The notes beneath the pieces are model-generated. The model did not search any database, was not told the DNA's origin, and worked only from the letters and a program-made list of their open reading frames with translations. DNA of 64,000 bases, taken from IMG/VR virus record IMGVR_UViG_3300025646_005482, positions 1-64,000 of that record; one strand, given 5' to 3'. Origin of the DNA: a virus. The position numbers and the translations under genes were made by a program. Below, in pieces: positions 1 through 63,856 of this stretch; the first letter of the stretch is position 1; every line of letters begins with the position of its first letter.

Positions 1-10
1 AGAACAACAA

Positions 11-256
11 ATGCTTGAGTTTGCTAATGTCACCTCTGACATTGAGATGGTGAACAGGCATTTTACTGAAGATGAAAAATGGGAAAACATAAATGGTGAA
101 TTATGTGATGCCATTCTCAATAAGTACGGTGCAATACAGCAACTGTACGAAATAAAGTTTCAGAACATGTGGGACACATTTGAGATAGTGTGTAAAGAAT
201 ATCATGAAGCAAAGAAACAGCGGGAACGAGATACCTCTCTGGACGATATTGGATAA
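11..256 (+). CDS. hypothetical protein (may be 5'-truncated by the window edge)
   Basis: 81-aa ORF ending 2 nt before the next gene; no recognisable motif. Confidence 0.5.
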   Translation: MLEFANVTSDIEMVNRHFTEDEKWENINGELCDAILNKYGAIQQLYEIKFQNMWDTFEIVCKEYHEAKKQRERDTSLDDIG

Positions 257-258
257 AA

Positions 259-1425
259 ATGATTGAACCAACCCGATATTATGATGAGTTCCTCAAGTAC
301 TTTGATCTAGCACTCAGTCAGCAGAAAAAATGTAACGTATCAGAAGGTGCACCTTATGGTATGATCAAGCATGCTGAGAGTGACATGGGCGACGACCTCA
401 TGGAACACGTTGAACTATACGATGTAGTTGAACGTAAGTATGCAGGCTTCTCTCAGATCGTCAATGATGTGTTCTATGGTTGGACTGATAAGCATCCATA
501 TTGGAAGAAGATGGAAGCTGGTATGGTGACACGTCAGCGTGAGCAGGTCGCGAAAGACTGGACAGGCAAACATGCTGACTTCGGTTTACCTGAATGGCTC
601 TATGTGTTCATCCTGCATCGTGTGACAGGCTCTGCGATCAACTACGCAACCAAACCTTCAGGTTATCACAACACTATTCTCTTTAATCTTCATCAGTCGA
701 AAAACATCGAAGAGATGGTCGGACTGATGCGTCATTATCCTGCACCATTCTATACATCGGTTGGTTATCAGTTCCCTGCATTTCCTAAACCTCAAAAAGG
801 TTACAAGAAAGGTGGTGACTATTTTCTCGGTGAGTATGCACCTCGTTTAGCAAGAGAAATGGCAGAATGGTTGGAATCTGGTGGTAAGCGAGATCTACGA
901 GAGATTGGTGAGTTTATGCTCGAGTGGAACGTGAAGAACGGATTGCGTAAGTACCAATTTCAATATGCGGCTGTCGTGGCTGACATTGCAGATTGGTACC
1001 CACAGTATGTCAATTTAGAAAGCATGTTCTATTACGGTACAAATGCTGTAGAATGTATCTCATATCTTGCAAAGCCGACACAGAAGATGAGCAAAGAAAC
1101 ATTCCTTGATGCGGTGATGACAAAGATTTACGATGATACAGGAAGTGTACCATATAATGCTGAAGATGTATGTTGTGACTTCATTCGTTATGTTGAGAAC
1201 TATGTACGCCCAGGTCCGGACTACGATCATCTCGACTATGACAACTTATGGTCATCATGTGGTATCAAAGATCATCCGTACGGTAGACAAAAGTATATGC
1301 TTGAACTCGGTCTTGTCGACACATTCAATGGTATGAAGAATCATCCATCTGACGATGCTGTCCTCAAGGCAAATAATATGAACGTAACTGAATATCAAAA
1401 ACTATGTCGCTCACTCACTTCTTAG
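259..1425 (+). CDS. aGPT-Pplase / amino acid:DNA transferase-like protein (HhH-glycosylase fold), putative DNA base hypermodification enzyme
   Basis: Motifs FQYAAVVADIADW, YYGTNAVECI and NAEDVCCDFIRY resemble the aGPT-Pplase1 pattern F..(E/Q)...D, GPGA..G, E..LC...KY; adjacent to a paralog and a PLP enzyme. Confidence 0.6.
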   Translation: MIEPTRYYDEFLKYFDLALSQQKKCNVSEGAPYGMIKHAESDMGDDLMEHVELYDVVERKYAGFSQIVNDVFYGWTDKHPYWKKMEAGMVTRQREQVAKDWTGKHADFGLPEWLYVFILHRVTGSAINYATKPSGYHNTILFNLHQSKNIEEMVGLMRHYPAPFYTSVGYQFPAFPKPQKGYKKGGDYFLGEYAPRLAREMAEWLESGGKRDLREIGEFMLEWNVKNGLRKYQFQYAAVVADIADWYPQYVNLESMFYYGTNAVECISYLAKPTQKMSKETFLDAVMTKIYDDTGSVPYNAEDVCCDFIRYVENYVRPGPDYDHLDYDNLWSSCGIKDHPYGRQKYMLELGLVDTFNGMKNHPSDDAVLKANNMNVTEYQKLCRSLTS

Positions 1426-2402
1426 GCGAACACGAACACGACATCCAGTATCAGAATATTGCCGACGTAGAACTGAAGAACGGTAAACCAACCGAAAGTT
1501 GGATGAAAGATTGGTGTCAAGAGGCTCGAACGAATAAGTTCTTCGAGTTTTGTCGTGCCTATGACGAACGTCAAGATTTCCTACTCAAGAACAACTATCA
1601 GCAGTTCTCACATCGTTTGCACTGGCATGAGTGTCCTTTTGTCGATGAGATGAAGAAAGAAACTGACAGACGCAAGTTGATCGAAGCTTGTGTCCTGTTC
1701 TCGTTCAGTAACGAGCATTGGCAGACGTTCAGGGCATGGCGAGATCATGGTTATGATGGCATGAAGGTACGGTTCTCGAACTATCGCCATGCACGTTCTG
1801 ATCTGTTTCAGATATACTATCCGAAGGACACGAAGGTCAAAGATTGGTTGATCGAAGCACCACGCCGTATTGCTCTTGATATTGATTCGATGTTTGTTGA
1901 ACGACAAACTATGCGACCGTTCACAATGATGGAGTTTGCCAAGAAGATGAACATCATCATGGTCCGTGACTACGGTTTTCGTAATGCCATGTATCCATCG
2001 AAAAATGTTGCTCGTCATATTGCAATGTCACATCCTGAACTAGTAGATCCCGACTCGTTCCTACATGGTGGTACAGGTTATTTCGACGGGCTTTCACAAG
2101 TGTTTGACTGTCCTCACCTCATGAGTAAGTCGAAGTATGAGATCGACGAGTATGGTGATTATGTGCCTATGAATAAGTGGGCAGAGATGCAAGTAGAACA
2201 CATGAACTACTTAAAGAATCATCCGAATAATCCAATCCATACTCATCAGTATCTCAACTTAGAAGACAAACTGTGCATGCATTATAAGTTCATGTCGATG
2301 AAACTTGGAGAGAAGAAACAAACAAAGATGATCCCATATGATTGGGTTTATCCACAAAATTGGTCACTGAAGACAAACAAATATGACAGAACGTTATCGT
2401 AG
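1404..2402 (+). CDS. second aGPT-Pplase / amino acid:DNA transferase-like paralog
   Basis: DFLLKNNYQQF, VLFSFSNEHWQTF, GGTGYFDGLSQVF and NLEDKLCMHYKF occur in the order expected for aGPT-Pplase1-type proteins. Confidence 0.6.
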   Translation: MSLTHFLGEHEHDIQYQNIADVELKNGKPTESWMKDWCQEARTNKFFEFCRAYDERQDFLLKNNYQQFSHRLHWHECPFVDEMKKETDRRKLIEACVLFSFSNEHWQTFRAWRDHGYDGMKVRFSNYRHARSDLFQIYYPKDTKVKDWLIEAPRRIALDIDSMFVERQTMRPFTMMEFAKKMNIIMVRDYGFRNAMYPSKNVARHIAMSHPELVDPDSFLHGGTGYFDGLSQVFDCPHLMSKSKYEIDEYGDYVPMNKWAEMQVEHMNYLKNHPNNPIHTHQYLNLEDKLCMHYKFMSMKLGEKKQTKMIPYDWVYPQNWSLKTNKYDRTLS

Positions 2403-2607
2403 AGCAGTAGTCGAAGCAGTGACTGATACCTTACTTGCTACACCACTCAATATGTTGATTAGTTGGGTGTTGTTATGGTTTGCATTTCAATATATGTGGG
2501 GACCTACGGTTACAATGTTTGTACAAACTGGTATAATGTTTATCTTTGCAGTGAGTCGTAAGGTGTATCTGCGTTTATATTTTCAGAGGCGCTATGAGTC
2601 ACGATAA
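2383..2607 (+). CDS. small membrane protein
   Basis: 74 aa, two hydrophobic segments, overlaps both neighbours as in an operon. Confidence 0.6.
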   Translation: MTERYRRAVVEAVTDTLLATPLNMLISWVLLWFAFQYMWGPTVTMFVQTGIMFIFAVSRKVYLRLYFQRRYESR

Positions 2608-3478
2608 TCATATCATTGATGGGGTAAATAAGGACGTAGGTATATTTGGCTACGAAGCCGCTCGTGAATACTATTTGGAGATGTGTGAAGGATGGAAACC
2701 CTACAATCCAGATCCAATAGTAAAAGTACACGACGGTGTCAGAGTTGTCAGAGACGACCTCACAGTGGGAACGAAAACTCGAGCGGGAGATCTTTTGGCT
2801 GCTCGTTGCCCGACTGATACTATGGTTTATTGTCAGCCTCGGACTGGGCTTGCTGGTGTATCTCTTCTTGACGTAGCAAAACATCATGGTAAGAAGGTCA
2901 CACTGTTTATGCCTTCTTCGAAAAGAGTATCACTTCATCAGGCTTGTTGTATCGAGCGTGGTGCAGATGTACAGTTTCATCGCATCGCTGCGATGCCTAA
3001 CCTTAATAAAAAGGCGAAAGAATATGCGGAACAAAATGGACACTACTTCATACCACTTGGCCTTCGACACGAGCTCGCTACCGCCGGAATTGTTTACGCA
3101 GCTAGTAGAATACCTGAGCCCGAAGTCGTATACGTCGCTATCTCTACTGGTGTTCTTACAAGAGCTCTTCAGATTGCATGGCCCAATGCTACCTTCCGTT
3201 GCGTTGCTGTTGCTAGGAACCTTAAAGCAGGCGAGTTAGGTAGAGGCGAAGTCATATCAGAACCACTCGCTTTTACTCAAGCAGAGAAGAAAGAAAACCT
3301 ACCTCCGTTCCCCACCATCGACACATATGACGGCAAAGTGTGGAAATATATTCCTAAAAATACCAGTCAGGACATACTTTTCTGGAACGTAGGCACAGAT
3401 CCAGTTTTACAAGATGAGACGATTTATGATAGAATAGATTCATATCGTCAGTGGGAGAAAGATCAATGCGCGGCTTAG
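2594..3478 (+). CDS. PLP-dependent enzyme, fold type II (tryptophan synthase beta / threonine dehydratase-like); candidate decarboxylase of a hypermodified base
   Basis: VVRDDL..GTKTR (PLP lysine), GLAGVSL, YFIPLG, VAISTGVLTRAL (phosphate loop), LFWNVG. Confidence 0.8.
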   Translation: MSHDNHIIDGVNKDVGIFGYEAAREYYLEMCEGWKPYNPDPIVKVHDGVRVVRDDLTVGTKTRAGDLLAARCPTDTMVYCQPRTGLAGVSLLDVAKHHGKKVTLFMPSSKRVSLHQACCIERGADVQFHRIAAMPNLNKKAKEYAEQNGHYFIPLGLRHELATAGIVYAASRIPEPEVVYVAISTGVLTRALQIAWPNATFRCVAVARNLKAGELGRGEVISEPLAFTQAEKKENLPPFPTIDTYDGKVWKYIPKNTSQDILFWNVGTDPVLQDETIYDRIDSYRQWEKDQCAA

Positions 3479-4569
3479 TTGCGTCACCGTTCAATGTAAT
3501 GTCAAAATCAATGGACAGCCATCGTGCTGCACAAGGTGTCATTTATGCAGATCAGCTTAAGCATGCTGGTAAAGACATCGATGTCTGTATGTCTGGGTTC
3601 CTCTACAAGGAAGATTGGAACCAGTACGATGAACTATACGTATATCATGGGAATGATTGGGGTGGCTCTCTGAATCTGTTTGGTGGACTGCAGAATTATA
3701 GTGGTATCTACAACTTCGTTAACTTCTCAAAATTCAAAGGCAAAGTGTACTCTCTCGTCATTGACATGGTCGACTACTATGCCATTATGAAAGAGAAACT
3801 CGATAAGGCCAAAGAGAAAGGTCAAGAGTATAATGCCGAGTGGAACGAAGTAGATTGGGATAATCTCAAGCGCATGTGTACAGAAGCCGAAACTCTCGAC
3901 CCGAATAATATTGCCGATCGTGAATATCGTAGGATCGCAATCGGTGATAGTCATGCCATCTGCATGTATCGTCCTTATTGGCGAAATATCTCGGTACCAT
4001 TCAAGACACTACATGGTGCATTGAAAGAAGGACTCGATAGTTTTATACCGACTGGTTCATACAGCGAAATTGAATTTTACTTTGGTAACATTGATATTCG
4101 TCATCATCTTTGTAGACAAGATAATCCAGAACAGGCAACTATAGAATTAGTGCGCAAATATATCGAGCAAGCAAGAGGCATCGCAGATTATTATAATGCA
4201 CATGTTCGCTTGTACGAACCTCTGCCTATTGAAAATCCTAGTCGTAAGATCCCAAAAACCGGTTGGCATAAAGGCGCACCTTTCTGTGGTGATTGGGCAT
4301 CGCGTAACTTTATTCGTAAACTTTTTCGAGAAGAGATTCGTAAACATCAAAGTGCCGAAGTTTCTTTGTACGAGTGGGTTGGAGAGATGATAAATAACAA
4401 AGGTGAGTTAGACTTTGAATACATGGAAAAACCTCAATCGGTACACCTCTCACGTCGCTGGTATCCTCATTGGCAAGGATACGAGTACAGCCACGCACCA
4501 TTCATCGATTACACTCCTATCCCAGAAGGATCCAAGAAGACGAATTCTTTGGAAGATTTCTTTGGGTAA
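3466..4569 (+). CDS. SGNH/GDSL hydrolase-fold protein with C-terminal sliding-clamp-binding-like tail
   Basis: IAIGDSHA (block I), FGNIDIRHH (block III-like), SVHLS (block V-like); C-terminus SLEDFFG; GGAGA SD before ATG 3466. Confidence 0.6.
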   Translation: MRGLVASPFNVMSKSMDSHRAAQGVIYADQLKHAGKDIDVCMSGFLYKEDWNQYDELYVYHGNDWGGSLNLFGGLQNYSGIYNFVNFSKFKGKVYSLVIDMVDYYAIMKEKLDKAKEKGQEYNAEWNEVDWDNLKRMCTEAETLDPNNIADREYRRIAIGDSHAICMYRPYWRNISVPFKTLHGALKEGLDSFIPTGSYSEIEFYFGNIDIRHHLCRQDNPEQATIELVRKYIEQARGIADYYNAHVRLYEPLPIENPSRKIPKTGWHKGAPFCGDWASRNFIRKLFREEIRKHQSAEVSLYEWVGEMINNKGELDFEYMEKPQSVHLSRRWYPHWQGYEYSHAPFIDYTPIPEGSKKTNSLEDFFG

Positions 4570-4735: not shown

Positions 4736-5698
4736 ATGGAACTTAAGATCGAAGTTAGCGAACTTCAAAAATATAAATTATTCATTGCAACTCCGATGTA
4801 TGGCGCACAATGTTCTGGTATGTACACTCGTGGCATGTCTGATCTATCAGCTAAGATGGCTAAGTACGGCATACCAATGCAATTCTATTATCTGTTCAAC
4901 GAATCACTGATTACACGAGCTCGCAACTATTGTGTTGACGAGTTTATGAGATCTGATGCTACACATTTGATGTTCATCGACTCTGATATCGGATTTAAAT
5001 CAGACGATGTCATCGCGATGTTAGGTTTGATGGTACAAAATGCAGAAGATTATGATGTACTGTGTGGCCCATATCCTAAGAAAACTATTTCATGGGAAAA
5101 GATCGTACAAGCTGTAAACAAAGGTGTGGCTGACAGCGATCCAAATGTTTTGGAAAATTATGTTGGCGATTACGTATTCAATCCAGTGAAGCAATCAGCG
5201 ATCAAGATTAGTGAGCCAGCAGAAGTAGCAGAAGGTGGTACAGGATTTATGATGATTTCTAAGCGTACATTCGAAGAGTACGCTATGAACTATCCTCAGT
5301 TTTATTACAAGCCAGATCATGTACGTACTGCCAACTTTGATGGTAGTCGAGAGATCATGGCATATTTTGATGCACTCATCGATGATAAGTCACAGAACTT
5401 GCTCAACGAGATTCAAGCATTTTATGACAAAAACCCTGATGCTGTCAAAGAAGATGTGATTAAATTTTTGGCAGACAAGAAGACAGGCATTCATACAGAA
5501 ACATATTCGAATCGATACTTGTCCGAAGACTACATGTTTTGTTATAATGTAAGACGTATGGGAAGAAAAGTGTGGATGTGTCCATGGATTCAACTCAAAC
5601 ACATCGGTTCCTATACATTTGGTGGATCATTGTCACACATTGCACAAATTGGGGCTAGCGCTACTGCAGACCCATCAAAATTAGGTAAGAAAAAGTAG
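4736..5698 (+). CDS. GT-A fold glycosyltransferase
   Basis: LFIATPMYG, NESLITRARN, HLMFIDSDI (DxD), GTGFMMI, YLSEDYMFC. Confidence 0.8.
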   Translation: MELKIEVSELQKYKLFIATPMYGAQCSGMYTRGMSDLSAKMAKYGIPMQFYYLFNESLITRARNYCVDEFMRSDATHLMFIDSDIGFKSDDVIAMLGLMVQNAEDYDVLCGPYPKKTISWEKIVQAVNKGVADSDPNVLENYVGDYVFNPVKQSAIKISEPAEVAEGGTGFMMISKRTFEEYAMNYPQFYYKPDHVRTANFDGSREIMAYFDALIDDKSQNLLNEIQAFYDKNPDAVKEDVIKFLADKKTGIHTETYSNRYLSEDYMFCYNVRRMGRKVWMCPWIQLKHIGSYTFGGSLSHIAQIGASATADPSKLGKKK

Positions 5699-5709
5699 GA
5701 AACTATATT

Positions 5710-6021
5710 ATGAGAAAAGACAATCAATTCTTTGGAGTAACAAAGAATGGTGAAAATCAACAGTTCAATTGCTATCATAGGAATAGCACCGGTAAATTTG
5801 TCGTACGTTTTAATGCCAATAATTATGTACCTGAAAAAAGCGGTAATAAGAAAAGCCAATGGACAGGTAAAAAATTATCTTCATTTAGTACGAAACAAGA
5901 AGCTATTAGAGCTGGTTATTTAATTTGTTCAGCTCTTAATCATCCAAGAGATGTACGTGAGATGAAACGTGTGGTACAATTAAGATCTGATTTCATTGAT
6001 TCATTTGGAGCTATAGTATGA
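5710..6021 (+). CDS. hypothetical protein
   Basis: 103-aa ORF with AGGA SD; overlaps the gp45 start. Confidence 0.55.
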   Translation: MRKDNQFFGVTKNGENQQFNCYHRNSTGKFVVRFNANNYVPEKSGNKKSQWTGKKLSSFSTKQEAIRAGYLICSALNHPRDVREMKRVVQLRSDFIDSFGAIV

Positions 6022-6671
6022 AACTCAATACACGTACTATTCAAGTACTCAAAAACTTTGCGTCTATCAACCCGTCCATTCAGTTCTCTGAAGGCACGAA
6101 TTTGAAGACCATCTCACCAAACAAGACGATGATGGCCAAAGCCAAACTCGAAGATGTAATTCCTTCGTCTTTTGCCATCTATGATCTGTCTCGTTTTCTC
6201 GGTGTTGTATCATTGTTCGAAGATCCGACATATAAGATCGAAGATCGTATGGTCAACATCTCCTCACCTGGTCGAAAGGTTAGCTATACGTTTGCTGATC
6301 CTTCCACCATCATCACACCTCCAGATCGTGAGATCGTATTGGAAGATCCTGATGTCGTGTTCGAACTCAAGCAAGAAAACTTTGCTGAGATCATGAAAGC
6401 ACTTGGCGTCATGTCATTCCCTGATCTGTGTGTAGTTGGCGAAGACGGTAAAGTTATTCTTCGTGCAACAGACACCAAAAATCCATCTTCTGATAAATAT
6501 GATATCGAAGTCGGATCTACCGATCGTACCTTTACCGCAGTTTTCAAAACTGAAAACGTTAAGATCCTGCCGTCCTCCTACACGGTAAGTCTTTCCTCGA
6601 AGGGCATTTCTCACTTTGTGTCCGACGATGTAGAGTATTGGATCAGCCTTGAAGCTAACTCGACCTTCTAA
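6018..6671 (+). CDS. gp45: DNA polymerase sliding clamp
   Basis: MKL...LKNFASINPSI, FAIYDLSRFL, YWISLE; T4 gp45 signature and synteny with gp44/gp62. Confidence 0.95.
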   Translation: MKLNTRTIQVLKNFASINPSIQFSEGTNLKTISPNKTMMAKAKLEDVIPSSFAIYDLSRFLGVVSLFEDPTYKIEDRMVNISSPGRKVSYTFADPSTIITPPDREIVLEDPDVVFELKQENFAEIMKALGVMSFPDLCVVGEDGKVILRATDTKNPSSDKYDIEVGSTDRTFTAVFKTENVKILPSSYTVSLSSKGISHFVSDDVEYWISLEANSTF

Positions 6672-6765: not shown

Positions 6766-7365
6766 TTGAGCAAGCACGTTGTTTATCACCACATACCGAA
6801 AACTGGTGGAACTTCCATCGTCGAACTATTTGAAAAAAGATTTGAACAAATGGAGAATCCCTTATCTCTCCTCAAATTCTTCGACAAGGATACCGATACT
6901 TATTATATCGTTAATCATCTTTTGTCTATATCTGAAGCCTGTGGAAATGCAGGAATTCCAAAAGAGGTTAAACATATCGTATCTGTAAGAGATCCGATTT
7001 ATAGATTTCTATCGTGTCTTAATCATAGATCAGTTCAAGCATTTGATCTAAAAAAGGAAGCTTACAGATTTGACAGCTCACAACAAGATTGGTTTGAGAA
7101 AAATAGAAAACATTTAGAAACACTAGATGTTACATTCATTAAATGTGAAAATTTGAATAGAGAATTTAAAGAGGCTTTCAATATACACAAGCAATTGGGT
7201 TTTTCAAAACGATCTATTGATAGATTTAAATCTCGAAATTTTAATATGGATGATTTCAATGAATGGTCGAAATTAGATGAGCAGACCAAACAAAAATTGA
7301 GAACATTATTTCAAGATGAATATTATGTGTTAAAATGTTTCGGTATAGAGTATAATATACCATGA
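6766..7365 (+). CDS. sulfotransferase family protein (Sulfotransfer_2-like)
   Basis: HHIPKTGGTSI (5'-PSB loop) and VRDPIYRFLS (3'-PB motif). Confidence 0.75.
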   Translation: MSKHVVYHHIPKTGGTSIVELFEKRFEQMENPLSLLKFFDKDTDTYYIVNHLLSISEACGNAGIPKEVKHIVSVRDPIYRFLSCLNHRSVQAFDLKKEAYRFDSSQQDWFEKNRKHLETLDVTFIKCENLNREFKEAFNIHKQLGFSKRSIDRFKSRNFNMDDFNEWSKLDEQTKQKLRTLFQDEYYVLKCFGIEYNIP

Positions 7366-10089: not shown

Positions 10090-10219
10090 GACATTTCCTC
10101 TCTTAGAAGCATTTCCAACAGAATATCTTACACGTCAATCGCCTGATAACCTATATGGTATCAGGTTCTTGAACTATGTGTCAAAAGACGATGCGGTGGT
10201 AGTGAATGAAAAGGACTGA
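10019..10219 (+). CDS. hypothetical protein
   Basis: 66-aa ORF bridging its neighbours with overlaps. Confidence 0.45.
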   Translation: MSMELLKIIKCSDPSKWYSTHVGETFPLLEAFPTEYLTRQSPDNLYGIRFLNYVSKDDAVVVNEKD

Positions 10220-10475
10220 AGACGCAGAGTTGTATTTTGGCAGTGGAGTAATGTCAAAAACCACCGAAGAATGTGGTGAATTGATTCAAGCTATCTCTAA
10301 GTATGCCAATAAAGGTGGCAAACGCAATGAGAATTGTATTTTTGAAGAAGCAGCGGACGTTATTGTTATGATCACTGCTTTAGTTCAATATCTTGAGGTC
10401 GATGAAGATAAATTTATGAAGAGAATTGAAAAAAGCAAAAAGAAATTTAGCAGATACTATGAAGGAGAAACATAG
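10206..10475 (+). CDS. MazG-like nucleotide pyrophosphohydrolase
   Basis: EECGELIQAISK ... EEAADV (ExxE...ExxD). Confidence 0.75.
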   Translation: MKRTEDAELYFGSGVMSKTTEECGELIQAISKYANKGGKRNENCIFEEAADVIVMITALVQYLEVDEDKFMKRIEKSKKKFSRYYEGET

Positions 10476-25825: not shown

Positions 25826-25853
25826 TTACTTTTCCTATATTTTGTGGTAGAAT
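25825..25853 (+). promoter_or_regulatory. early promoter of the DNA polymerase gene
   Basis: TTTACT-17 nt-TAGAAT with extended TG, about 7 nt upstream of ATG 25861. Confidence 0.6.
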
Positions 25854-25860
25854 GGTTTAC

Positions 25861-28404
25861 ATGATGACAGACTTTTACACCAATGTTTCTCAGTACGGTA
25901 ACTATCTGTATGTTCGTGGTTTCAACGAGGATGGCTCGCGAATGCAGCGTCGGTTCGTATATGAACCCTACCTCTTTGTTCCATCTAACGTAGAGACTGG
26001 TTACACAGACATTCACGGTAACCATGTGCAGAAGAAGATGTTCGATAACATCAGACATGCACGTGATTACATCAAGAGATACGAGGAGGTCGAAGGATTC
26101 AATGTCTACGGCCTCGATCGTTATCCTTATGTATTTATATACGACACCTTTCGAAACCAAGAAGTTGACACGAGCAAGATCAATGTAGTCAACATCGACA
26201 TCGAGGTGGCATCAGACGATGGTTTCCCCGAACCTGAAGACGCTGACAAAGAAATCACAGCTATCGCTCTTCGTCGTCGTAATATGACAGTCGTACTCGG
26301 TTGTGGTGACTTCAAGTCAAACGACAAGAATGTGTACTACATCAAGTGCAAGCACGAATATCATTTGCTACATAAGTTTCTCGATGTGTGGCAAAACATG
26401 GATCCAGATGTTATCACTGGTTGGAACACAGAGTTCTTCGATATTCCGTACCTCGTCAATCGTATCACTAAAATCCACAGCGAAGAGATGGCACAACGTC
26501 TCTCACCGTGGGGTATCATCAAAGAAAAGCGTGTGTTCCGTCAAGGCAGTGACAAGCAATCACAGACATTCCAAATCTTCGGTGTGTCAAGCCTCGACTA
26601 TCTCGCCATCTACAAGAAGTTTCGACTACAACCTCGCGAATCGTACAAACTCGACTTCATTGCCGAGACAGAACTCGGTACCAAGAAGTTGGACTACAGC
26701 GAGTACGGTAACTTGCACGAGTTGTACAAGAACAACTTCCAAAAGTTTATCGAATACAACATTCGTGACACAGACCTCATCTTCGACTTAGAAGAAAAAC
26801 TCGGCTTCATCGAACAGATCTATGCGATTGCTTATGATGCAAAGGTCAATTACAACGACACTCTCGCCACTGTTGGTATCTGGGATGTGATCATCCACAA
26901 CTATCTGATGGATCAGAACAAGGTCGTATCGATGAAACGTCCACCTAAGTCCGATCGTATGATCGAAGGTGGTTACGTCAAAGAACCTATCGTTGGCATG
27001 CACAAGTGGGTAATGTCATTCGACCTCAACTCTCTGTATCCACACCTCATTCAGCAATACAACATCTCGCCTGACACTGTGATCAGCAAGACAGATGACC
27101 TGTTCACTATCACGAAGGATGCGAGTGTTGATACGGTACTCAACGAAGAACTCGACCTGACTGCGCTGAAACATTACAATGTGACCATGACACCGAACGG
27201 TAAGATATACCGTAAGGATTATCAAGGCTTCTTGCCTACTCTCATGGCCAAGATGTACGATGATCGTGTGTTGTACAAGAAGAAGATGTTCGAAGCGAAG
27301 TTGGCCAATCAGAAGAATCCATCACGTGAACTACAGATTGACATCAGTCGATACCATAACCTACAACACGCCAAAAAGATTCAGCTGAACGCAGCTTATG
27401 GTGCACTCGCCAACAAATACTTCCGATGGTTCGACAACGAGAATGCCGAGGCCATCACCATGGCTGGTCAGTTGTCTATTCGATGGATCGAGAAGAAACT
27501 CAATGTATGGATGAACAAGATACTCGAGACAAAAGGTCGTGACTACGTAGTCGCAATCGATACCGATTCGGTGTATGTCTCATTCGACAAGATGGTCGAG
27601 ATGACTAAACCAAAAGATCCTGTAGAATTCCTTGACAAGGTTGCAAAGCAACAAGTCGAAACATTCATCGATCGATCGTATCAAGAACTTGCCGACTACA
27701 CGAATGCATATGCACAGAAGATGATCATGAAACGTGAGAACATCGCTGACAAGGCCATCTGGACGGCCAAGAAGCGATACATCATGAATGTGTATGACTC
27801 CGAAGGTGTACGTTACGACGAGCCTGATCTCAAGATGATGGGCATCGAAGCCATTCGATCGTCAACTCCTGCGGTATGTCGCGAGTACATTAAGAAAACA
27901 CTCGAACTCATCATGTCTACAGACGAAGCCACTGTGCAGAAATACATCGCAGACATTCGTAAAGAATTTAGAACACTCAGCTTCGAAGAGGTTGCATTCC
28001 CTCGTAGTGTTAACTTTGTCAAGTGGGAAACTAACCACAAAACTGGTCAACGATTTCCTGGTACGTACGCCGATAAGGATACTATTTACAAAAAGGCTTC
28101 ACCGATTCAGGTCAAAGGTGGTCTGATATACAACCACTATTTGCATAAATATAACCTAACTAAAAAATACGAGGAAGTCAAAAGCGGTGAGAAGATCAAG
28201 TTCAGTTACTTGGTCAAACCGAATCCATTCAGAGATACTGTGATCTCATGTCCTGATGTATTACCACCCGAATTTGGCCTAGAAAATTATATTGACTATG
28301 ATACACAATTTGTCAAAGGCTATCTCGATCCAATCGAAATCATCTTACATGCTATCGGTTGGAAGTCTGAGAAAGTTGCAACACTTGAGGATTTCTTTGC
28401 ATGA
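25861..28404 (+). CDS. gp43: family B DNA polymerase
   Basis: ExoI DIEV, GWNTEFFDIPY, SFDLNSLYPH, KKIQLNAAYG, AIDTDS, KKRY; C-terminal clamp motif LEDFF. Confidence 0.98.
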   Translation: MMTDFYTNVSQYGNYLYVRGFNEDGSRMQRRFVYEPYLFVPSNVETGYTDIHGNHVQKKMFDNIRHARDYIKRYEEVEGFNVYGLDRYPYVFIYDTFRNQEVDTSKINVVNIDIEVASDDGFPEPEDADKEITAIALRRRNMTVVLGCGDFKSNDKNVYYIKCKHEYHLLHKFLDVWQNMDPDVITGWNTEFFDIPYLVNRITKIHSEEMAQRLSPWGIIKEKRVFRQGSDKQSQTFQIFGVSSLDYLAIYKKFRLQPRESYKLDFIAETELGTKKLDYSEYGNLHELYKNNFQKFIEYNIRDTDLIFDLEEKLGFIEQIYAIAYDAKVNYNDTLATVGIWDVIIHNYLMDQNKVVSMKRPPKSDRMIEGGYVKEPIVGMHKWVMSFDLNSLYPHLIQQYNISPDTVISKTDDLFTITKDASVDTVLNEELDLTALKHYNVTMTPNGKIYRKDYQGFLPTLMAKMYDDRVLYKKKMFEAKLANQKNPSRELQIDISRYHNLQHAKKIQLNAAYGALANKYFRWFDNENAEAITMAGQLSIRWIEKKLNVWMNKILETKGRDYVVAIDTDSVYVSFDKMVEMTKPKDPVEFLDKVAKQQVETFIDRSYQELADYTNAYAQKMIMKRENIADKAIWTAKKRYIMNVYDSEGVRYDEPDLKMMGIEAIRSSTPAVCREYIKKTLELIMSTDEATVQKYIADIRKEFRTLSFEEVAFPRSVNFVKWETNHKTGQRFPGTYADKDTIYKKASPIQVKGGLIYNHYLHKYNLTKKYEEVKSGEKIKFSYLVKPNPFRDTVISCPDVLPPEFGLENYIDYDTQFVKGYLDPIEIILHAIGWKSEKVATLEDFFA
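26132..26139 (-). promoter_or_regulatory. antisense late promoter inside gp43, probably driving the lysozyme
   Basis: Perfect TATAAATA on the minus strand about 300 nt upstream of the lysozyme ATG. Confidence 0.5.
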
Positions 28405-38239: not shown

Positions 38240-38399
38240 ATTTAAACATTGGAAAGATGACAGAGAACTAGTCGAAGTAGGCGAATTACCACCTGCTTTA
38301 AACAATCCGCAGTCTGAAAAGTACGTACTACAGACACCACGCGGTGAATTTGTTGATATTCGTAAAGAGACAGTTGTGGAGATAACAGATGTCGATTGA
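38226..38399 (+). CDS. hypothetical protein
   Basis: 57-aa ORF overlapping both neighbours. Confidence 0.5.
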   Translation: MKRVKFKHWKDDRELVEVGELPPALNNPQSEKYVLQTPRGEFVDIRKETVVEITDVD

Positions 38400-38715
38400 T
38401 TACAAATTTAATGAAGAAGTATTGGTGAATGAGTTAGCTGATTACATCGACTCTACGTATGATCAGCACTATTCTAAGGGCAAGTTTCAAGCCACAGAGT
38501 TCATCATTGACGGTGGACACGGTGAAGGATTCTGCCTCGGAAACATCCTCAAGTACACACAGCGATACGGCCAGAAAGATGGCAAGAATCGTAAGGATCT
38601 ACTGAAGGTCCTACACTACGCTATCATAGCTCTCCATGTGCACGACCAGGAGCAGCAGGAATCTGCTGACTGGCGTACAAAGATGGTCATAGAATCAAAT
38701 GATCTAAAAATGTAA
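38389..38715 (+). CDS. DUF3310-like protein (putative nucleotide kinase, T7 gp1.7-like)
   Basis: QHYS...GFCLGNILKYTQRYGQKDG...DLLKVLHY. Confidence 0.7.
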   Translation: MSIDYKFNEEVLVNELADYIDSTYDQHYSKGKFQATEFIIDGGHGEGFCLGNILKYTQRYGQKDGKNRKDLLKVLHYAIIALHVHDQEQQESADWRTKMVIESNDLKM

Positions 38716-63398: not shown

Positions 63399-63856
63399 AC
63401 TATCCTGGAATTAGTTCGGCGTGGGATCGTAAGTTCTTAGCGTTAGCACAACACATCTCATCGTGGTCGAAAGACCCGTCAAAAAAGATCGGCGCGGTAG
63501 CTGTTGGTCCTAATCGTAATATTCTCGCCACAGGATATAATGGATTCCCAAAGGGAATACAAGACACCGAAGAAAGACTGAACGATCGCGAGACAAAGTA
63601 TGAGCTCGTGGTACACGCTGAAATGAATTGTATATATAATGCTGTAGAGAATGGAGTTTCACTGAAGGGTGCACATCTCTACGTTTACGGATTACCTATC
63701 TGCCACGAATGTGCAAAAGGCGTAGTACAAGTTGGTATAGGTAGAGTAGTCATCGAAGATGCATTATGCGCCGAACAAAGGTGGTCAGACAGTTTTGCCA
63801 AATCAAAAAGAATCTTCCACGAAGGTAACGTCGTCGTTAACTACTGCAAGTTATGA
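63392..63856 (+). CDS. cd: dCMP deaminase
   Basis: WSKDPS, GYNGFP, VHAEMN, PICHECAK. Confidence 0.93.
   Translation: MVNYPGISSAWDRKFLALAQHISSWSKDPSKKIGAVAVGPNRNILATGYNGFPKGIQDTEERLNDRETKYELVVHAEMNCIYNAVENGVSLKGAHLYVYGLPICHECAKGVVQVGIGRVVIEDALCAEQRWSDSFAKSKRIFHEGNVVVNYCKL

Follow-up and report, generated by a model that had tools for sequence, protein, structure and literature searches.

The operon

The window analysed here comprises the first 64 kb (64,000 nucleotides) of the 160,330-bp IMG/VR record IMGVR_UViG_3300025646_005482, which belongs to an uncultured aquatic T4-like phage, a myovirus, and has an estimated completeness of 89%. Close to its start lies an operon (positions 259–4569) that we interpret as the tailoring part of a conserved, kinase-free pathway hypermodifying 5-hydroxymethylcytosine (hmC) in the phage DNA, with a probability of roughly 60%. 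A first-pass annotation of the window had proposed a DNA hypermodification operon with a gene combination outside the characterised pathways, which the folds, the motif and the linkage to gp42, the dCMP hydroxymethylase, support. It named the kind of system correctly and had the base and the activation step wrong.

As that annotation described, the operon consists of five co-directional, overlapping open reading frames (ORFs). All are on the + strand, with head-to-tail overlaps of 22, 20, 14 and 28 nt. ORF1 (259–1425, 388 aa) is a core gene of the module and is predicted to have the helix-hairpin-helix (HhH) glycosylase fold and to resemble the amino acid:DNA transferases (AADTs); it carries the motif E302-D303-x-x-C306. 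ORF2 (1404–2402, 332 aa), a divergent paralog of ORF1 with the motif E287-D-x-x-C291, is accessory. ORF3 (2383–2607, 74 aa) is a membrane protein with two hydrophobic helices, the small membrane ORF noted earlier. ORF4 (2594–3478, 294 aa) is a probable fold-type II pyridoxal phosphate (PLP) enzyme with Lys61. ORF5 (3451–4569, 372 aa) combines a β-glucosyltransferase-like region (residues 1 to about 150) with an SGNH fold (150–357; Ser167 and His332). ATG 3466 is the likelier start of ORF5, because the position of residue 6 is the start in most of its homologs. Scans for promoters and terminators gave a signal no better than chance.

A predicted AADT-like fold and motif in ORF1 and ORF2

The first-pass annotation took ORF1 and ORF2 for paralogs with a common motif and a G-T-(G/N) loop. 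By BLASTP the two are only weakly similar (E 0.017). Profile–profile comparison of the two families with hhalign gives E 3.4e-5 (probability 72%), with the G-T-(G/N) loop and E-D-x-x-C aligned, and in a joint MAFFT alignment of 41 sequences they are collinear over the full length, which bears the claim out. G260, E302 and C306 are invariant in this alignment, twelve more positions are almost invariant, and a lysine or arginine occupies the +4 position in all 41 sequences.

Neither protein has a Pfam match, even at E 10, or a PHROG match. PDB sequence searches with ORF1, ORF2 and the joint profile returned noise only, and megablast and tblastn against 50,697 deposited phage genomes found no relative of either. 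PF18724 (ADDT) is the Pfam model of the AADTs and PF18723 that of the helical domain of the DNA kinase acting on 5-hydroxymethyldeoxyuridine (5-hmdU). The genome-wide search with PF18724 was empty; the model matches 0/33 ORF1 orthologs and 0/16 ORF2 relatives, and all 33 ORF1 members are without any Pfam match. PF18723 is weakly matched by three of the 16 ORF2 relatives. As positive controls, ViI gp247 matches PF18724 at E 3e-58, and all 120 homologs gathered with a two-sequence AADT profile carry it. Comparison of ORF1 and ORF2 with single AADT sequences by hhalign was not significant, and a hidden Markov model of the ORF2 family detected nothing in the ViI genome. Longer, fused forms of ORF1 and ORF2 were searched for and none was found, which is weak evidence.

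The fold is more informative. With the joint alignment as input, AlphaFold2 gave a model of ORF1 (predicted local distance difference test score, pLDDT, 80.9; predicted template modelling score, pTM, 0.83), which was compared, with no prefilter, with 48,161 representative PDB chains. The first-ranked chain is 8z2m (Z 8.6, root-mean-square deviation 4.3 Å over 210 residues), PaMx11 gp46, a 5-phosphomethyl-dU glycinyltransferase and a characterised AADT (PMC11472151). Ranks 2–20 all belong to the HhH superfamily (DUF2419 queuine salvage protein, AGOG, AlkA, Mag1, endonuclease III, OGG1, MutY), and after rank 20 Z is about 3. An ortholog of ORF1 with 66% identity is listed in BFVD as 'Amino acid:DNA transferase domain-containing protein', and the weak matches there repeatedly include AADT-domain, Pplase1 and kinase-helical-domain proteins. 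In a protein language-model atlas, ORF1 and ORF2 are neighbours of clusters with PF18723 or PF18724 in a minority of their members.

For PaMx11 gp46, the residue proposed to attack C6 is Cys247, and Glu243 and Thr244 bind the metal in contact with thymine O4 (PMC11472151). M6 gp51 and ViI gp247 lose their activity when either the Cys or the Glu is mutated (PMC8989533). Across the 120 AADTs with PF18724 the motif is nearly invariant (Glu 120/120, Thr 120/120, Cys 119/120, Lys at +3 120/120). At the equivalent motif ORF1 and ORF2 have Glu in 41/41, Asp in 37/41 at the place of the AADT Thr, Cys in 41/41 and Lys or Arg at +4 in 41/41, and the spacing of Glu and Cys is that of PaMx11 gp46 (E243, C247). 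The best hhalign alignments pair these residues with the Glu, Thr and Cys of the AADTs, although the alignments are statistically insignificant. By predicted fold and motif, then, ORF1 and ORF2 are a new family of the aGPT-Pplase/AADT superfamily, outside the Pfam families, and the transferase-like reading of ORF1 stands because its model matches the PaMx11 AADT best and because of the Glu/Cys motif. Of the earlier description of the pair as aGPT-Pplase/AADT-like, the fold and the Glu/Cys pair are thus recovered, but no Pfam model detects the relationship. Lack of a structural match to the HhH/aGPT-Pplase fold had been named as grounds for abandoning the proposal; with the PaMx11 AADT as the top PDB match it is unrefuted.

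With Asp in place of Thr beside the catalytic Glu, the pocket could be suited to the N4 amino group of cytosine instead of thymine O4. The equivalent distinction between the bases is made by Asn177 in thymidylate synthase and Asp179 in gp42. A simple Thr/Asp rule for the base is disfavoured, because the corresponding protein of Aeromonas phage 44RR2.8t has Ile at that position.

ORF5 joins an SGNH domain to a glucosyltransferase-like domain

The first-pass annotation recognised ORF5 as an SGNH protein with a GDSH motif; the fold and an invariant Ser and His agree with this, and a β-glucosyltransferase-like front domain was missed. The model of ORF5 (pLDDT 88.7, pTM 0.85) shows the three-layer α/β/α fold of the SGNH hydrolases for residues 150–357. 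Foldseek matches this domain to 2hsj (E 1e-6), and VIA superposes 162–182 residues at about 3–4 Å (Z 13–14) on platelet-activating factor (PAF) acetylhydrolase, sialate O-acetylesterase and GDSL lipases. A further match is PatB, a peptidoglycan O-acetyltransferase (Z 10.8). No variation was seen among 39 sequences at S167 in G-D-S-H, at G189 (block II) or at H332; one subclade has Ser for the Asn of block III.

The front 150 or so residues suggest a resemblance to the N-terminal acceptor domain of T4 β-glucosyltransferase (beta-gt). The match to PF09198 has E 0.002 and 18.3 bits, under the cut-off of 27. Comparison with beta-gt by hhalign gives a probability of 45% (E 2e-4) with 38% identity over 48 columns, which include an N-(L/F)-F-G-G loop, and Foldseek matches 1qkj at E 3e-4 with a template modelling score of 0.28–0.30. 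The residue aligned with the catalytic Asp100 of beta-gt is not conserved in ORF5 homologs (D, K, N or P). ORF5 has no UDP-glucose-binding C-terminal domain; the SGNH domain takes its place.

ORF5 ends with the peptide S-L-E-D-F-F-G (4546–4566, + strand), a putative docking tail for the gp45 sliding clamp. Among the 203 ORFs only the gp43 DNA polymerase (25852–28404, + strand), with T-L-E-D-F-F-A, ends alike; T4 gp43 ends S-L-D-F-L-F-G. The tail of T4 gp43 docks on the gp45 clamp. In most of the 39 ORF5 homologs the tail is kept, in some at 28% identity. The gp45 gene of the phage lies at 6018–6671 (+ strand; Pfam gp45-slide_C, phrog_223; 31% identity to T4 gp45), and we infer that its product is the docking partner of ORF5 and ORF2. 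The N-terminus of ORF2 (1404–1440) reads M-S-L-T-H-F-L-G-E, and most close orthologs start (S/T/D)-L-x-x-F-(I/L), the consensus of the clamp tails. In several relatives (L029:7574–8779, L031, L071, L082 and L087) a gene resembling C5-cytosine DNA methyltransferases (PF00145, E 1e-15) lies directly 3′ of ORF5; its product has an end of the S-T-L-E-S-F-F type, as in ORF5 and gp43, and such a gene is surprising where the phage DNA is expected to carry hmC. The clamp-type peptides on ORF5, the methyltransferase-like proteins and ORF2 point to enzymes working on DNA at the clamp.

Conservation and arrangement of the module

Relatives of ORF1 occur in at least 462 IMG/VR stretches (tblastn, E <= 1e-3), and about 950 protein clusters match it at E <= 0.001. 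For ORF2, clustering at the 50% level leaves 52 representatives. Co-occurrence was counted in 80 IMG/VR loci, of which 51 have enough flank. ORF5 accompanies ORF1 in all of them (51/51), and the PLP gene and ORF2 each do so in 39/51. By BLAST, ORF3 was found in six of the 51, close relatives only, and is probably not part of the core of the operon. The gp42 gene is upstream of ORF1 in 34/43 loci. The two ends of the record adjoin in related contigs, so that gp42 lies directly upstream of the operon.

In the relatives gp42 follows the DUF1599-like gene; after one or two small genes, in many cases for a dCMP deaminase and a protein with the uracil-DNA glycosylase (UDG) fold, come ORF1, ORF2, the PLP gene and ORF5. 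A minimal module consists of gp42, ORF5 and ORF1 only (loci L019 and L091). In at least 14 loci the block is placed between gp42 and uvsX, followed by gp41, which is the slot of beta-gt in T4. Identity across the relatives is 64–98% for ORF1, compared with 44–88% for gp42, 27–88% for ORF5 and 34–93% for the PLP enzyme.

The record breaks within the spacer between gp42 and ORF1 (genome 159792–160330 and window 1–256), where relatives have ORFs of 101–121 aa and 86–87 aa. Between gp42 and ORF1, 36 loci encode a UDG-superfamily protein of about 140 aa (PF03167, E 0.002; e.g. L075:7586–8005 and L047:7140–7601) and 28 encode a dCMP deaminase; the close relatives of the phage have neither gene there.

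The phage encodes a dCMP hydroxymethylase

Hydroxymethylases of the thymidylate synthase (TS) family supply modified deoxynucleoside monophosphates for DNA. The first-pass annotation assumed phosphorylated 5-hmdU as the substrate and recommended a search of the genome for a TS-like hydroxymethylase and a 5-hmdU DNA kinase. The first search found a single TS-family gene, at genome position 159100–159795 outside the window (PF00303, E 4e-13), and it is of the dCMP type, not the dUMP type. It is 52–53% identical over the full length to the gp42 proteins of T-even phages (52% over residues 6–226 for T4 gp42) and keeps Glu60, Cys148 and Asp179 (R-N-D motif), as do T4 gp42 and 60 homologs from related loci (61/61). 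The protein is without the last 20 or so residues of T4 gp42. Genome-wide, no ThyX, second TS-family gene or dUMP hydroxymethylase was found.

The second search yielded no 5-HMUDK or other kinase candidate. Profile searches of the genome with PF18747, PF18723 and PF18724 gave no match, and no homolog of the 5-hmdU kinases was found. Six ORFs, gp44 and gp46 among them, contain the Walker-type P-loop (G-x4-G-K-S/T), and no 5-HMUDK-like kinase was recognised in this set. Neither alpha-gt nor beta-gt has a homolog in the phage. The predicted substrate is hmC, not 5-hmdU, because the only TS-family gene is of the gp42 type and neither a dUMP hydroxymethylase nor a 5-hmdU kinase was found; the adjacency of gp42 to the operon in relatives likewise speaks against the earlier proposal.

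A DUF1599 (Nmad1)-like gene at genome position 158742–159116 (L104:12743–13114), also outside the window, overlaps the beginning of gp42, and most relatives keep the two together. In this phage, which has no gp56 homolog, its product may work with gp42 on the nucleotide pool.

ORF4, neighbouring genes and genomic setting

ORF4 matches PALP (PF00291) at E 7e-5 and 22.7 bits, under the gathering cut-off of 35, and phrog_7093 at E 3e-36; its PDB matches, to cysteine synthases, are weak. In an alignment of 27 sequences K61, in G-T-K-T-R, and an S-T-G loop are invariant. These results agree with its earlier identification as a fold-II PLP enzyme. A local match of the C-terminal part to the PLP decarboxylase ViI gp226 (E 7e-4) covers a short common motif. 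ViI gp226 belongs to the same Pfam family, at a similarly weak score, and to a different PHROG.

Two neighbours were considered as members of the module and dropped. The sulfotransferase-like ORF at 6766–7365 (PF03567, E 2e-5), between gp45 and gp44, was a candidate activator and was discarded, being found with the module in no more than 1/51 loci. ORF6 (4736–5698; phrog_1574, D-S-D motif, named 'putative glycosyltransferase' in one relative) is present with ORF1 in 23/51 loci and was set aside because it is kept beside gp45 in DLP_6 and phiM12, which have no ORF1. In some close relatives (L014:8594–9208 and L018) a 205-aa ORF with a weak match to the 2-oxoglutarate-Fe(II) oxygenases (E 0.004) is inserted between ORF2 and ORF3.

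Homologs of T4 gp43, gp44, gp45, gp62, regA, gp46, gp47, gp55, uvsX, gp41 and gp61 are present in the phage. By its clamp loader it is closest (55–62% identity) to Stenotrophomonas phage DLP_6, Methylophilales phage Melnitz, pelagimyophages and cyanomyophages. The dCMP deaminase, MazG-like and DUF3310 genes that the first-pass annotation mentioned elsewhere in the window were located at 63419–63754, 10206–10475 and 38389–38715.

Relatives in cultured phages

Relatives of ORF5 with 27–30% identity occur in the Aeromonas phages 44RR2.8t, 31, phiAS4 and others, in Stenotrophomonas phage IME13 and in Tenacibaculum phages. The most informative is ORF233c of 44RR2.8t (795 aa; NC_005135 160422–162809, L002:6001–8388). 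Its N-terminal 338 residues are ORF5-like and carry N-L-F-G-G, G-D-S-H and S-V-H, followed by a Lys-rich linker. In the C-terminal half, which matches PF18723 weakly (E 0.0036), a G-P-G turn precedes E-I-A-C-C, and the latter aligns with the Glu/Cys motif both in ORF2 and in the AADTs. A clamp-type tail, S-L-D-G-L-F-A-I, closes the protein. ORF233c appears to be a natural fusion of ORF5-like and ORF1-like core functions, the homology of the second half being drawn from weak scores. The phage has a canonical thymidylate synthase and a gp42 with R-N-D. Petrov et al. (2010) reported that phages 44RR, 31 and 25 have genes 42 and 56 and no glucosyltransferase, and their DNA modification was then unknown (PMC2993671).

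In phiAS4 (ORF0025–0027, L107:1275–4547) the ORF5-like gene (348 aa, tail T-L-E-L-F-D-I) comes after a UDP-galactopyranose mutase gene (E 4e-76 to the mutases in the PDB) and a gene for a 358-aa protein ending L-D-L-I-M-A. This locus may specify a different, sugar-based modification of hmC.

Proposed pathway and alternatives

Most likely, judging from these genes, the phage makes T4-type hmC, and the enzyme set puts a chemically undescribed, non-sugar decoration on cytosines of its DNA. The gp42-type dCMP hydroxymethylase would make hm-dCMP, which would be incorporated into DNA. After replication, ORF5 would ride the gp45 clamp by its polymerase-like tail, its β-glucosyltransferase-like front domain would bind the flipped hmC, and its SGNH domain would use Ser and His to esterify the hydroxymethyl group, the job of the 5-hmdU DNA kinase in the thymidine pathways. 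Cys306 of ORF1 would then attack C6, the leaving group would be expelled, and a nucleophile, probably an amino acid, would be added at the C5 methylene. ORF2, where present, may act like ORF1, and ORF4, where present, would trim the appended group. The model for the transfer step is the AADT mechanism, in which Cys attacks C6 and the leaving group at the C5 methylene is displaced (PMC11472151). The genes, their folds, the conserved residues, the synteny and the co-occurrence are observations; we infer that the enzymes act on DNA, as well as the order of the reactions, the donor of the acyl group, the nucleophile and the base finally made. In its most specific form, which we put forward tentatively, ORF5 would be an hmC O-acyltransferase that joins the base-holding half of a glucosyltransferase to an SGNH domain and replaces the kinase, ORF1 and ORF2 would be cytosine-specific relatives of the AADTs with a Thr-to-Asp switch, and the pathway would be bound to the clamp at the fork and yield an amino-acid-derived 5-substituted cytosine common in aquatic T4-like phages. 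A full-text literature search found no paper linking AADT-like enzymes to gp42 or hmC.

Several observations weigh against this pathway. The Z of 8.6 for the ORF1 model is modest for a helical protein, ORF1 and ORF2 reach no Pfam AADT or kinase-helical model, and comparison of their profile with the 120 AADTs is not significant (E 0.05–0.2). ORF5 is without the Asp of the usual D-x-x-H block, there being none three residues before His332. Its acyl-activation role is conjectural, and SGNH enzymes are mostly esterases. The neighbours of the ORF5-like gene beside the mutase in phiAS4 were tested and include no ORF1-like gene; because of this arrangement the ORF5 family is not everywhere tied to ORF1 chemistry. 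As the record is 89% complete, a kinase could sit in the missing part. Homologs of T4 gp1 (hm-dCMP kinase) and gp56 (dCTPase) were not found in the phage, and full replacement of cytosine is therefore not to be assumed.

A different scheme, which we regard as doubtful, has ORF1, with or without ORF2, substitute the hmC hydroxyl directly, with ORF5 later tailoring the appended group or separately O-acylating the remaining hmC. C5-cytosine methyltransferases can swap the hydroxyl of hmC for thiols via a covalent C6 intermediate, so prior activation is not chemically obligatory. A later role for ORF5 would suit SGNH enzymes, which often tailor attached groups, and its matches to O-acetylesterases and the O-acetyltransferase PatB; it would also suit phiAS4, where the ORF5-like gene stands without ORF1 beside a sugar-nucleotide enzyme. 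It fits poorly with a front domain that resembles the part of beta-gt holding hmC itself and with the presence of ORF5 in every locus, even those without the PLP gene and ORF2. Because of this complete co-occurrence and the apparent fusion in 44RR2.8t, ORF5 is better explained as an obligatory partner than as optional tailoring.

It is improbable that the locus encodes no modification pathway, with ORF1 and ORF2 as glycosylase-like proteins for repair, destruction of host DNA or counter-defence and with ORF5 and ORF4 as unrelated metabolic enzymes that are merely co-transcribed. Such a view could draw on the 19 of the 20 best PDB matches of ORF1 that are HhH proteins other than AADTs, nearly all DNA glycosylases plus DUF2419, and on the UDG-fold gene adjoining ORF1 in 36 relatives. 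The invariant Glu and Cys, however, align with the catalytic pair of the AADTs and not with the Asp and Lys of the glycosylases. The linkage to gp42 is tight and persistent, the slot of beta-gt is occupied, and ORF5 has a clamp tail and a beta-gt-like domain.

A thymidine pathway that uses phosphorylated 5-hmdU and has its hydroxymethylase and kinase genes beyond the window would account for a fold and Glu/Cys motif known only from 5-hmdU pathways and could have lost its genes to the missing part of the record, but it is very improbable and largely refuted by the sequence: the sole TS-family gene has Asp179, as do all 60 of the module-adjoining homologs, the kinase and AADT profiles and the six P-loop ORFs provide no candidate, and the metal-holding Thr that contacts thymine O4, present in 120/120 AADTs, is Asp in ORF1 and ORF2.

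To our knowledge, all AADT-built non-sugar hypermodifications are on thymine. If true, a kinase-free cytosine version would be both a new base and a new activation chemistry in phage DNA biology. The hypermodification module is widespread and experimentally approachable; given its abundance, it could bear on restriction, on CRISPR targeting and on the biases that sequencing and amplification introduce into aquatic viromes. The clamp-docking-type peptides on several modification enzymes suggest modification coupled to the replication fork, and DNA-acting enzymes of this kind would be useful as tools for labelling hmC. For three phages of Aeromonas (44RR, 31 and 25), which have no glucosyltransferases, the module is a concrete candidate for the fate of hmC, a question raised in 2010 (PMC2993671).

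Comparison with known systems

Thymidine hypermodification in M6, PaMx11, ViI and PhiW-14 uses a dUMP hydroxymethylase, a 5-hmdU DNA kinase, an AADT (aGPT-Pplase2, PF18724) and, for tailoring, a PLP decarboxylase or other enzymes (PMC8989533, PMC11472151). As in these pathways, a TS-family enzyme of the phage is predicted to make the hydroxymethylpyrimidine before replication, the central enzyme has the HhH-glycosylase fold with the Glu-to-Cys spacing of PaMx11 gp46, a probable fold-II PLP enzyme often goes with it, and pairs of paralogs are frequently seen. Unlike them, the system appears to act on cytosine (gp42 type with Asp179) rather than uracil, and in place of a kinase, none of which was found, it has an SGNH-fold enzyme as an apparently obligatory partner. 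ORF1 and ORF2 differ from the AADTs in having Asp for Thr244, in the shift of the conserved Lys by one residue and in escaping the Pfam models.

With the glucosylation of hmC in T4 (PF09198; 1qkj, 1j39) the system shares a gp42 ortholog and the position of the module in the gp42–uvsX slot of beta-gt, and the ORF5 front appears to share the N-x-F-G-G loop region with the N-terminal domain of that enzyme. In contrast to beta-gt, ORF5 has an SGNH domain instead of a UDP-glucose-binding domain and a variable residue at the position of Asp100; unlike T4, the phage has no homologs of alpha-gt, beta-gt, gp1 or gp56.

The nearest non-sugar derivative of hmC is 5-carbamoyloxymethylcytosine, found by MetaGPA and made by a dCMP hydroxymethylase and a carbamoyltransferase (PMC8670742). 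In uncultured phages, both systems would place a non-sugar group on the hmC hydroxyl by means of an enzyme whose gene adjoins a gp42 homolog. The enzymes are unrelated, and the AADT-like, SGNH and PLP components are absent from the carbamoylation pathway. With the SGNH acyl-transfer enzymes (PAF acetylhydrolase, sialate O-acetylesterase, PatB) ORF5 shares the fold, the G-D-S block and the block V His. It differs from them in the variable Asn of block III, in having no Asp three residues before the His, and in being joined to a beta-gt-like domain and a clamp-type tail; its substrate is presumably DNA.

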